This document shows positions 4,080 to 9,464 of a stretch of DNA of 12,844 bases, in pieces. The DNA comes from a virus. The notes below the pieces were generated by a model. That model made no database searches, was not told the origin of the DNA, and worked only from the letters and a program-made list of their open reading frames with translations. Where the stretch lies: UHGV virus genome UHGV-0098265; one strand, given 5' to 3'. The position numbers were made by a program, and so were the translations under genes. Position 1 is the stretch's first letter; every line of letters starts with the position of its first letter.

Positions 4080-4787
4080 ATGGTTCAGAATGAAAAAGTG
4101 CGCAAAGAATTCGCCCAGCGGCTAGCGCAAGCCTGTAAAGAAGCTGGTCTTGATGAACATGGTAGGGGAATGGCTATAGCCCGTGCCCTTTCTCTTTCGT
4201 CCAAAGGCGTTAGCAAATGGTTTAATGCTGAGTCTTTACCGCGTCAGGAAAAAATGAATGCGCTTGCGAAATTTCTAAACGTTGATGTTGTTTGGCTTCA
4301 GCACGGCACTTCGTTAAATGGAGCGAATGATGAAGATACTCTTTCATTTGTTGGCAAATTAAAAAAAGGGTTAGTGCGCGTGGTTGGTGAGGCAATTCTT
4401 GGTGTTGATGGTGCCATCGAGATGACCGAAGAACGCGATGGGTGGCTCAAGATTTATAGCGATGATCCAGATGCCTTTGGTCTTCGTGTGAAAGGAGACA
4501 GCATGTGGCCCAGAATAAAATCAGGAGAATATGTACTCATTGAGCCTAACACCAAAGTATTCCCGGGTGATGAGGTGTTTGTCAGAACCATCGAAGGACA
4601 CAACATGATCAAGATTCTTGGCTATGACAGAGATGGAGAATACCAATTTACAAGCATCAACCAGGACCACAGACCAATAACGTTGCCTTATCATCAAGTA
4701 GCAAAGGTGGAGTATGTGGCTGGTATTCTGAAGCAATCTCGCCATCTGGATGACATCGAGGCAAGGGAGTGGCTGAGAAATTATTAA
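4080..4787 (+). CDS. cI: CI-type prophage repressor (N-terminal HTH, C-terminal S24/LexA-like autopeptidase domain); non-lambda immunity specificity
   Basis: 235 aa. C-terminal GDSMWPRI motif (Ser nucleophile) plus a downstream Lys, typical of RecA-stimulated self-cleaving repressors; divergent from cro. Confidence 0.9.
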   Translation: MVQNEKVRKEFAQRLAQACKEAGLDEHGRGMAIARALSLSSKGVSKWFNAESLPRQEKMNALAKFLNVDVVWLQHGTSLNGANDEDTLSFVGKLKKGLVRVVGEAILGVDGAIEMTEERDGWLKIYSDDPDAFGLRVKGDSMWPRIKSGEYVLIEPNTKVFPGDEVFVRTIEGHNMIKILGYDRDGEYQFTSINQDHRPITLPYHQVAKVEYVAGILKQSRHLDDIEAREWLRNY

Positions 4788-4911
4788 TACCAATAGCATA
4801 GAGACGAAAATGCGACAGGTTTTAGGTACAAATCATAACCCTATCCACAAACAACGTTGTAAATATACACATAAGACTATTGTAAAAAAAGCTCTATCCC
4901 AGTAAATGCGG

Positions 4912-5874: not shown

Positions 5875-6053
5875 AAACAGATACCAAACGAGATGGGTTT
5901 GGCGGTGTGGTGAAGGGTTCATGGACGGGAATATGTCGCACGTAAAGCGGCGAGGCCTGCGGGACTATTGCCGAATTGAAGTAGGCCGAAACAGGTCGAA
6001 ATGGGTCTCCCACCTACCTCACCACCAAAGCCATTTTACATGAGGAAAACATC

Positions 6054-6362
6054 ATGACGGTAATCGTGTACGGGAAATCAACATTTACAGGAAATGCCAA
6101 AACTCGCCGTCATGAGCGGCGCAGAAAGCTGGCTATCGAGCGTGATGCTATATGCAACATCATCGATTCGATCTTCGGTACAGACAGTGATGAACCTGTT
6201 CAGAAAGAACCGAGAAAGCGTTTAAGCCTTTCTGAAAAAGCAATATCACTCGGCAACATTCGTAACCAAAATACCGACGAATGCAATGGAAGCATTTGCC
6301 TGCCAAACGTAGCCATCTACGTGGCAGGCTATCGGAAATCAAAACAACTGACGGCGAGGTAA
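6054..6362 (+). CDS. N: N-type transcription antiterminator with a P22-type arginine-rich motif
   Basis: 102 aa. N-terminal GNAKTRRHERRRKLAIERD matches the P22 N boxB-binding peptide as recalled. GAGGA Shine-Dalgarno 7 nt upstream; positioned downstream of PL/nutL. Confidence 0.85.
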   Translation: MTVIVYGKSTFTGNAKTRRHERRRKLAIERDAICNIIDSIFGTDSDEPVQKEPRKRLSLSEKAISLGNIRNQNTDECNGSICLPNVAIYVAGYRKSKQLTAR

Positions 6363-6419
6363 TTATGGATATTTCATGTATTGAACAATTACTAATTGAG
6401 AAAACGAAAGAAATGCTTG

Positions 6420-6659
6420 ATGTATTGGACAAAAAAAATATCTGAGTTAAAAGATACACCCGCGACACAACTTATTCTCGAACGTAGTCGAAATAAATTC
6501 TTAGAGTTAAGCCCTGACGTTCAAAATATAGCATCTAAACTGCTGGCTACGTTGATTGAGAGGAATGCATTGTTATCGATGTCATCAGATGAACGAAAAA
6601 AACTGACGAACGAAGATGTTGCAACCATCCGCCAGGCATTCGAAATTTTGTTCTCTTAA
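6420..6659 (+). CDS. Hypothetical small protein; frame is interrupted upstream at an A8 tract (alternative: frameshifted about 97-aa gene starting at 6365)
   Basis: ORF track 6396..6659 begins at a TTG. An ATG at 6365 with a GAGGT Shine-Dalgarno opens a 26-codon frame that ends just after the A8 tract at 6431-6438; the long frame continues in +1. Confidence 0.45.
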   Translation: MYWTKKISELKDTPATQLILERSRNKFLELSPDVQNIASKLLATLIERNALLSMSSDERKKLTNEDVATIRQAFEILFS

Positions 6660-6824
6660 TTACTTACTGTTTATTCTGATAATCTCATCAAGAATTTTTT
6701 CATAAACAACTGTGCTTGGCTTTCCGTCAATGCCAGGGGCAAGATTACCGGCTCTGATAAGCTCAACAATAATCTGTTGAGCGGCTTCGTGTGGGTTGGT
6801 TTTGGGATTAACAATATCTGTCAT
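6660..6824 (-). CDS. Hypothetical 54-aa protein (MTDIVNPKTNPHEAAQQIIVELIRAG...), antisense to the PL operon
   Basis: Internal ATG at 6824 within track ORF 6660..6929, preceded by GAAGGG; two 14-bp direct repeats lie immediately upstream; its stop abuts the stop of the convergent plus-strand gene. Confidence 0.5.
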   Translation of the reverse strand: MTDIVNPKTNPHEAAQQIIVELIRAGNLAPGIDGKPSTVVYEKILDEIIRINSK

Positions 6825-6837
6825 AACAAAGCCCTTC

Positions 6838-6886
6838 TTTTGACTGTGGAAACAACAGTCTACCCATTTCCTTTGACTGTGGAAAG
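6838..6886. repeat. Two direct repeats of TTTGACTGTGGAAA spaced 35 bp apart, upstream of the minus-strand 54-aa gene
   Basis: Identical 14-mers at 6838-6851 and 6873-6886 read directly; each contains a TTGACT hexamer. Confidence 0.55.
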
Positions 6887-7075
6887 TGGAGGAACCACCG
6901 AGCCCGATGTGGTTAAAAGACAGGCACAATCTTTACTACCGCAATCCACTATTTAAGGTGATATACGGAAGAACAAGCAAACAAGATTCTCGTAGAACTA
7001 CTGCAAAAAGCCAGCAATGGAATAGACGCGGCTGTTTCATTTAGCCAGGCACAGATTCCTGATGTTGTTCATCAG

Positions 7076-7414
7076 TTGCTGCTATGGAATATGGTTGACA
7101 GTCTGATTAAAACATTAATAGCCATTCTAACAATCCCACTGGTTTTCTGGTTTATGAAGAAGCAGTGCCAAAGAGTTGAGACAGGTGAAATCGGTGATGA
7201 AGGATATTCATGGGAGAAAGGAAATCCCAAATACAGGCCGACAATGGTTTGGGATAGCAAAGGTGATATTAATCTTCTTATCGTGCCATTGGTTGGAGTT
7301 TTGACTCTGTGGGGGGATTTTATTATTGGTGCAGTAACCAATATGACTTGGTTAAAAATTTGGCTGGCCCCAAAGCTTTACCTTATCGAATATGCAGCAT
7401 CATTGGTTAATTAA
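7076..7414 (+). CDS. Small membrane protein with two hydrophobic segments (possible superinfection-exclusion SieB/Esc-like); start uncertain (TTG 7076, ATG 7091, or upstream)
   Basis: Hydrophobic segments LIKTLIAILTIPLVFWFM and INLLIVPLVGVLTLWGDFIIGAV. The frame is open back to 6962 with AAGGTG upstream but no canonical start codon. Confidence 0.55.
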   Translation: MLLWNMVDSLIKTLIAILTIPLVFWFMKKQCQRVETGEIGDEGYSWEKGNPKYRPTMVWDSKGDINLLIVPLVGVLTLWGDFIIGAVTNMTWLKIWLAPKLYLIEYAASLVN

Positions 7415-8791: not shown

Positions 8792-8816
8792 GTTATGTAT
8801 AAATAAGGAGCACACC

Positions 8817-8981
8817 ATGCAATATGCCATTGCAGGGTGGCCTGTTGCTGGCTGCCCTTCCGAATCTTTACTTGAACGAATCACCCGTAAATTACGTGAC
8901 GGATGGAAACGCCTTATCGACATACTTAATCAGCCAGGAGTCCCAAAAAATGGATCAAACACTTATGGCTATCCAGACTAA
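8817..8981 (+). CDS. cIII: CIII (FtsH/HflB inhibitor that stabilises CII), lambda-identical
   Basis: 54 aa, [60 protein letters not shown] Shine-Dalgarno. Absent from the ORF track because it is short. Confidence 0.9.
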   Translation: MQYAIAGWPVAGCPSESLLERITRKLRDGWKRLIDILNQPGVPKNGSNTYGYPD

Positions 8982-9093: not shown

Positions 9094-9464
9094 CCCCCTT
9101 TCCTGTTTTCCTAATCAGCCCGGCATTTCGCGGGCGATATTTTCACAGCTATTTCAGGAGTTCAGCCATGAACGCTTATTACATTCAGGATCGTCTTGAG
9201 GCTCAGAGCTGGACGCGTCACTACCAGCAGCTCGCCCGTGAAGAGAAAGAGGCAGAACTGGCAGACGACATGGAAAAAAGCCTGCCCCAGCACCTGTTTG
9301 AATCGCTATGCATCGATCATTTGCAACGCCACGGGGCCAGCAAAAAAGCCATTACCCGTGCGTTTGATGACGATGTTGAGTTTCAGGAGCGCATGGCAGA
9401 ACACATCCGGTACATGGTTGAAACCATTGCTCACCACCAGGTTGATATTGATTCAGAGGTATAA
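9048..9464 (+). CDS. gam: Gam (RecBCD inhibitor), lambda-like; the short GamS form would start at ATG 9168
   Basis: 138 aa, [55 protein letters not shown]... matches lambda Gam as recalled. The internal ATG at 9168 is preceded by CAGGAG. Confidence 0.93.

Follow-up and report, generated by a model that had tools for sequence, protein, structure and literature searches.

A widespread A8 tract directly downstream of the antiterminator gene N probably marks an inherited frameshift allele of a small accessory gene in lambdoid prophages

The A8 tract that directly follows the antiterminator gene N in the virus genome UHGV-0098265 is probably a genuine, inherited frameshift allele, null or hypomorphic, of a 97-codon accessory gene (hereafter called orf97), in other words a young pseudogene. 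The window, i.e., the whole stretch of DNA that was analysed, is 12,844 nucleotides long, and a sequence-only reading of it had offered four explanations for the tract: a sequencing or assembly error, a pseudogene, a slippage-prone on/off switch, or a short leader ORF coupled to an ATG at position 6420. The pseudogene is the best of the four, as intact 97-aa orthologues carry ATAAAAA at the site.

The window covers the immunity and early-left region of a lambdoid prophage of the 933W type; 70% of its length aligns with phage 933W and Stx phages at ~97% identity. On its + strand, a cI-type repressor gene (4080-4787) is found upstream of N (6054-6362; 102 aa, Pfam PF25694 N_peptide, E = 2.8e-38; PHROG 271), and N is followed by several small genes and then by cIII with its thermoregulator RNA, kil, gam, bet and exo. 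The lambda cIII thermoregulator (8804-8862, + strand; Rfam RF01804, 88.5 bits), located upstream of or overlapping the cIII start, is as expected in a lambdoid early-left operon. It was the only match of the Rfam search in the window, with no family found at the A8 tract, and the tRNA search returned none. A promoter and terminator scan detected no terminator between N and orf97. The site of orf97 is the N-antiterminated leftward early (pL-type) operon, directly 3' of N.

The start codon of orf97, ATG 6365, lies 2 nt past the stop codon of N (TAA 6360-6362), and the 3' end of N contains its Shine-Dalgarno sequence (GGCGAGG, 6353-6359, + strand). Pairing with the 16S rRNA tail is calculated at -7.8 kcal/mol, compared with a background mean of -1.9 kcal/mol in the window, which places ATG 6365 in the top 3% of window positions; it equals or exceeds the other starts scored, which reach -7.3 kcal/mol. 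The frame opened by this ATG comprises 26 codons and ends at TGA 6443-6445, just past the A8 tract (6431-6438, + strand). This 5' fragment (6365-6445, + strand; translation MDISCIEQLLIEKTKEMLDVLDKKNI) is identical over residues 1-22 to the N-terminus of the intact 97-aa orthologues. The start, the Shine-Dalgarno sequence within the end of N and the early stop, all pointed out in the sequence-only reading, are read directly from the DNA, and its +1 frame does continue past the tract: this frame, which includes ATG 6420, is open over 6396-6659. The 3' fragment in that frame (6438-6659, + strand; 73 codons and a stop) corresponds to residues 24-97 of the intact orthologues, from which it differs only at A80T and A84V. 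It is annotated by PGAP and other callers as a 79-aa product encoded by 6420-6659 (WP_248784791.1).

The proposal that one extra or one missing A would fuse the two frames proved half right. Loss of one A (A7) does yield a 97-codon fusion, as would the gain of two (A10), but an A9 tract reads ...KKKYLS and then meets a stop (TAT CTG AGT TAA). The A8 tract is the sole homopolymer of at least 8 nt in the 12.8-kb window; by chance, ~0.06 runs of at least 8 are expected in the 295-nt stretch and 0.59 A/T runs of at least 8 in the whole window. A further A7 run inside orf97 (6596-6602, coding for ERKKL) has a stable length in all loci.

Comparisons with related prophages identified the gene in its intact form. 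Six complete Escherichia coli genomes match most of 6300-6720, and in five of them the sequence is one base shorter: they read GAC ATA AAA ATA TCT, against GAC AAA AAA AAT ATC TGA in the window, and encode a single 97-aa protein (MDISCIEQLLIEKTKEMLDVLDIKISELKDTP...FEILFS). In total, ATAAAAA together with a single 97-aa ORF was found in 5 complete E. coli genomes, 4 IMG/VR contigs and 1 metagenome contig (L002-L006, L008-L010, L012 and L014; proteins P0007, P0012 and P0013 among others). Because these relatives have an uninterrupted ORF of 97 codons over the same stretch, spanning both fragments, the 26-codon frame and the +1 frame are the two halves of one gene. The fused protein of about 97 aa predicted from the window matches the single ORF of the related prophages, and the suggested comparison of tract lengths gave a 7-nt, in-frame ATAAAAA in the intact relatives. 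In the protein database, ~10 clusters at 97-100% identity were collected, from E. coli and E. albertii only, with the most frequent intact alleles present on 115 and 42 contigs and additional smaller groups. The gene is present in ~0.1% of complete E. coli genomes.

The annotations of orf97 are heterogeneous, and some of them extend it by 23-28 residues back into N. We discarded the start inside N that PGAP uses for a 125-aa product, as its 28-residue extension varies freely, the core is invariant and a strong Shine-Dalgarno sequence precedes MDIS. The 97-aa form is the real gene, because the extension towards N is variable whereas the proteins are nearly invariant from MDIS on, and because of the strong Shine-Dalgarno sequence before MDIS. 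Calls of 120-125 aa that start within N are over-extended, and the 79-aa 'hypothetical protein' (WP_248784791.1 and its cluster) and a 54-aa upstream call are fragments of one 97-aa gene.

Searches for more distant relatives were performed at several levels. The 97-aa protein had no tblastn match in 50,697 deposited phage genomes, and with blastn the N end was the only part found. Nothing significant was retrieved for orf97 from Pfam, PHROGs, PADLOC, NCBIfam or the PDB sequences; matches to YcgL (E = 0.017, below threshold) and to PHROG 517 (E = 0.005-0.04, insignificant) were set aside. In an exhaustive HMMER search, 1.84 billion representatives yielded nothing but the orf97 family itself and one 36-residue match, between residues 2-37 of the query and a repeated segment of a 556-aa protein. 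A single-sequence AlphaFold2 model of orf97 shows four helices with a pLDDT of 61.5, and Foldseek found no match to it in BFVD at E <=0.001; both results were kept out of our inferences. On the evidence of the sequence searches, orf97 appears to be an Escherichia-restricted orphan with no detectable relatives.

We then considered whether the extra A might be an artefact. Homopolymers are classic sites of indel errors, and one closely related contig reads A7, so the true genome could in principle carry an intact 97-codon gene. However, the exact 79-aa product, which requires A8, was found on 192 contigs (348 index blocks), whose sources are NCBI, ENA, Logan and UniRef. The A8 loci that we fetched come from two chromosomes (CP025840, which is complete, and CM127658), draft genomes, metagenome scaffolds and IMG/VR contigs. 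At least four right-hand contexts were distinguished among the A8 contigs: that of the window, one devoid of DUF2528, one with IS66, Ral and Rad52, and one with a 322-aa gene and Rad52. All A8 loci carry one SNP haplotype over 6270-6970 (6551G, 6563G, 6606A, 6619T, 6653C, 6715C and others), and a metagenome scaffold (L016) is identical to the window across 8.2 kb. Because the same A8 recurs in independent assemblies, from a complete genome and other isolates to metagenomes and Logan contigs, and in different mosaic contexts, we reject the error explanation as exceedingly improbable. The constant linkage of A8 to the same SNPs likewise argues against it, and points to a vertically inherited haplotype of single origin. 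A pattern scan for the tract yielded 0 matches in genome contigs, while viral and metagenome contigs did match.

Taken together, the intact alleles are recorded about as often in public data as the A8 allele alone (115, 42 and the smaller groups against 192 contigs), with the proviso that the sampling of clonal lineages could inflate either side of such contig counts. Relative to ATAAAAA, the window sequence, AAAAAAAA, has a one-base insertion in the A-run plus a T-to-A change at 6432. Two contigs carry other forms of the tract. In L013, a metagenome contig at 3.6x coverage, it reads ATAAAAAA, with eight bases, the T kept and the frame broken; this contig is 97.7% identical to the A8 loci, with an intermediate haplotype and no suspicious indels elsewhere. 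In L023, a Logan contig from run ERR10608951, the tract is A7 within an otherwise complete A8 haplotype, so that the 97-aa protein is uninterrupted and carries I23K (P0025, recorded on this one contig). The same contig also reads A6 at an intergenic run after cI (4884-4890) for which nine other loci have A7, and its A7 tract in orf97 may reflect homopolymer undercalling, a revertant or a surviving intermediate. The two possible orders of events, i.e., insertion of an A and then T-to-A, or T-to-A and then insertion, are equally parsimonious. Exact-sequence look-ups recorded none of the A9 product, the A10 product, L013-type products or an intact I23 form with the T/V haplotype.

The T-to-A change has a second effect. 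In the intact and ATAAAAAA alleles, the frame of ATG 6420 reads ATG TAT TGG ACA TAA and is closed after four codons; the change at 6432 removes this TAA, and the A8 allele alone has the 79-aa ORF. That ORF therefore has no counterpart in the relatives, whose first 26 codons form the in-frame N-terminus of the 97-aa protein, which speaks against a leader ORF coupled to ATG 6420 as the ancestral design; no conserved layout with a functional downstream start was found among them. The same A8 tract in related genomes, with a conserved start at 6420 and unconserved upstream codons, had been named as the observation that would count against a split gene, and the opposite was found. The alignments suggest that the 79-aa ORF is a by-product of the T-to-A change, with no conserved design.

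The A8 allele might nevertheless encode a working, N-truncated 79-aa protein by termination and reinitiation at ATG 6420 (6420-6422, + strand), the start used by annotators and out of frame with ATG 6365, with the T-to-A change as a second-site rescue. That the ORF is open in A8 only and closed in the ATAAAAA and ATAAAAAA alleles is in favour of this scenario, as is the intermediate haplotype of L013, which fits an insertion first and a T-to-A change second, and the ATAAAAAA form, on one contig, is far rarer than the A8 allele, on 192. Reinitiation in bacteria occurs over short stop-to-start distances, and TGA 6443-6445 lies ~23 nt downstream of ATG 6420, within that range. On the other hand, ATG 6420 lacks a Shine-Dalgarno sequence, its anti-Shine-Dalgarno duplex (-0.9 kcal/mol) being weaker than the window mean of -1.9 kcal/mol, and the product would lose residues 1-18, corresponding to most of the first of the four helices predicted with low confidence. 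The opposite order of events, in which T-to-A first gives A7 and a slip then gives A8, is just as parsimonious and one A7 contig exists, while the substitutions accumulated since the lesion are too few for a test of selection. We consider a functional truncated protein unlikely. Its most explicit version, in which the insertion (ATAAAAA to ATAAAAAA, as in L013) preceded an adaptive T-to-A change that opened ATG 6420, and the 79-aa product made by reinitiation then allowed the allele to reach about half of the copies, is more doubtful. As an accidental by-product, reinitiation at ATG 6420 is mechanistically possible and may occur.

We also examined whether the tract might be a slippage device, either a phase-variable switch operating by replication slippage or a site of transcriptional or +1 ribosomal recoding. 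Its length is at the lower edge of the runs for which slippage has been seen (PMC1088944, PMC6260861), tRNA-Lys can, as read from the sequence, re-pair after a +1 shift on AAA-A, and the A7 product P0025 in the complete A8 haplotype could stem from a revertant. L013 moreover shows a +1 event in this short run, either independent or ancestral, which suggests an indel-prone site. Nevertheless, the A9 and A10 products are absent from the record, and within the haplotype 192 contigs have A8 and a single one has A7. A fast on/off switch, one of the options raised initially, is disfavoured because there is only that one A7 contig, which itself appears to undercall another A-run, the contraction from A7 to A6 being unique to it; the length polymorphism among close relatives that characterizes phase variation is thus lacking. 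The tract is not conserved either, since a T interrupts the run in all intact alleles and most alleles are in frame; only the A8 haplotype and L013 have the two-frame layout.

Recoding meets further obstacles. Repair of the frame in the A8 allele requires a +1 ribosomal shift or an RNA that is one A shorter, and a -1 ribosomal shift leads to a TAA stop after four codons. RNA folding on both sides of the tract gave z-scores of -0.07 and 0.06 relative to shuffled controls, i.e., no structure that might be stimulatory; the sequence before the tract has no Shine-Dalgarno-like element, and the shift site has no slow codon. With E. coli RNA polymerase, slippage was undetected on runs shorter than 8 A, and no deletion-type restoration was detectable on the poly(A) tracts tested (PMC6260861). 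Lambda N is reported, in the work of Parks et al. 2014 as cited there (ref. 62 of PMC6260861), to inhibit slippage and to suppress deletions preferentially, and the orf97 tract is transcribed by an N-modified polymerase. Runs prone to slippage show signs of counter-selection from ~9 nt in many bacterial genomes (PMC1088944), and by these literature thresholds an 8-nt tract is below the run of ~9 or more that would be able to slip by deletion. Altogether, we regard a slippage device as very unlikely.

The interpretation that we favour remains a frameshift allele of an accessory gene. In the A8 prophages, orf97 would be translated from the strong Shine-Dalgarno sequence within N, and ribosomes that start at ATG 6365 would stop after 26 codons, giving a 26-aa peptide as the main product. 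Full-length protein would arise only through rare +1 ribosomal slips or deletion of an A in the RNA, at a level expected to be ~1% or less; non-programmed frameshift suppression in E. coli amounts to ~1% (PMC10861913). At most traces of the 97-aa protein are expected, because of the absence of a recoding signal, the lack of conservation of the tract and the published measurements of slippage. As translation from ATG 6365 would end after 26 codons and ATG 6420 has no Shine-Dalgarno sequence, the allele most probably behaves as a null or a strong hypomorph.

It is likely that the lesion is tolerated because the gene is accessory and dispensable and because the frameshift exerts no polarity on the downstream genes of the N-antiterminated transcript: N-modified transcription would resist Rho-dependent polarity, and cIII, kil, gam, bet and exo would still be expressed. 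The biological consequence of losing orf97 is probably small. The A8 tract thus documents how a frameshift allele can last and spread under N antitermination, in an operon in which polarity would carry no cost. As counterpoints, the abundance of A8 and the absence of additional lesions from the 73 codons downstream would both agree with a function kept by the 79-aa ORF, and the T-to-A change at 6432 may have been compensatory instead of neutral.

The genetic environment of orf97 was analysed as well. A convergent 54-aa gene on the - strand (6660-6824; PHROG 27767, E = 9.6e-10; WP_000129979.1 in relatives and WP_164997364.1 in strain 214-4) has a stop codon that abuts that of orf97 (TAATTA). 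It was found on 208 contigs, and it is present alongside orf97 in 24 of the 24 loci examined. The two genes look like a mosaic cassette spanning ~6276-6973. Upstream of the 54-aa gene are two 18-nt direct repeats, TTC(T/C)TTTGACTGTGGAAA (6835-6852 and 6868-6885, to which no strand is assigned), at a spacing of 33 nt and with 0.2 chance matches expected. They travel with orf97 and the 54-aa gene and may form the promoter or operator of a gene that is read in the opposite direction to the early-left operon.

Next on the + strand is a gene (6965-7414, 149 codons) for a transmembrane-helix protein, which matches PHROG 3054 (E = 5e-62) from residue 2 onwards. It opens with ACG after a strong Shine-Dalgarno sequence (AAGGTGA), while phages Gally, HF4s and Oslo have ATG after the same Shine-Dalgarno sequence. 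The T-to-C change at 6966 is common to all window-type loci, and ACG 6965 represents either the loss of a start codon or a rare ACG start; the change fits the decay of accessory genes. Gene callers place the start of this gene differently, yielding 142, 107 or 56 aa, which we did not retain as a polymorphism: the DNA is identical and only the choice of start differs. In nine loci that represent other mosaic variants (L001, L003, L005, L009, L011-L014 and L018), the same Shine-Dalgarno sequence and an ATG open a very acidic 28-aa ORF (MEEEFEEFEEHPQDVMEQYQDYPYDYDY) and the PHROG 3054 gene is replaced, with a recombination junction at 6966-6974, in the first few codons.

Other signs of decay in related prophages include IS66 insertions and shortened or missing gam calls. 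ISEc43, an element of the IS66 family, has entered the stretch between the cI side and N, at window positions 6011-6019 and with a 9-bp target duplication, in E. coli 214-4 (CP025840; L001 and L018) and in L011, which are otherwise near-identical A8 prophages. Another IS66 element is located upstream of cII in L019. The IS66-bearing prophages are probably defective. For the gam gene (window ~9168-9464), a 40-aa fragment is called in L021 and nothing in L019, although the DNA is >99.6% identical to that of the window, which suggests point lesions in gam of some related prophages.

Among known systems, programmed ribosomal frameshifting is exemplified by lambda G/GT, by dnaX with A_AAA_AAG and by the +1 shift of prfB, and tRNA-Lys is slippery on A-runs made of lysine codons. 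The orf97 tract shares with these systems an A-run of lysine codons. It differs from them in that a +1 rather than a -1 shift is needed, in the absence of a slow or stop codon at the shift site, and in the lack of an upstream Shine-Dalgarno-like stimulator, of a downstream structure and of a conserved two-frame layout. As in phase-variable contingency loci, a mononucleotide run is located early in a coding sequence and its length determines the reading frame; unlike in them, the orf97 tract is short and essentially invariant in length among ~190 recorded copies.

Rescue by transcriptional slippage has been described for ORF fusions of IS elements at A9 and for poly(A) tracts of endosymbionts (Baranov et al. 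2005, PMC1088944). As in those cases, the A-run of orf97 marks the exact point where two frames encoding one protein meet. Unlike them, however, it is only 8 nt long and unconserved, a deletion would be needed, and the N-modified polymerase is reported, in the work cited above, to slip less.

The closest likeness is with the homopolymer-frameshift pseudogenes of prophage accessory genes, in which a one-base insertion in a short A-run splits a conserved ORF. As in such pseudogenes, there are intact orthologues, the lesion is inherited, and neighbouring genes or related prophages display start-codon loss and IS66 insertions. It differs from them in that the A8 allele is widespread, representing about half of the recorded copies, in the absence of secondary lesions and in the 79-aa ORF that stays open. 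Judging from these comparisons, the A8 tract appears to be an ordinary homopolymer frameshift allele, notable only for its spread and for the long ORF that it leaves open.
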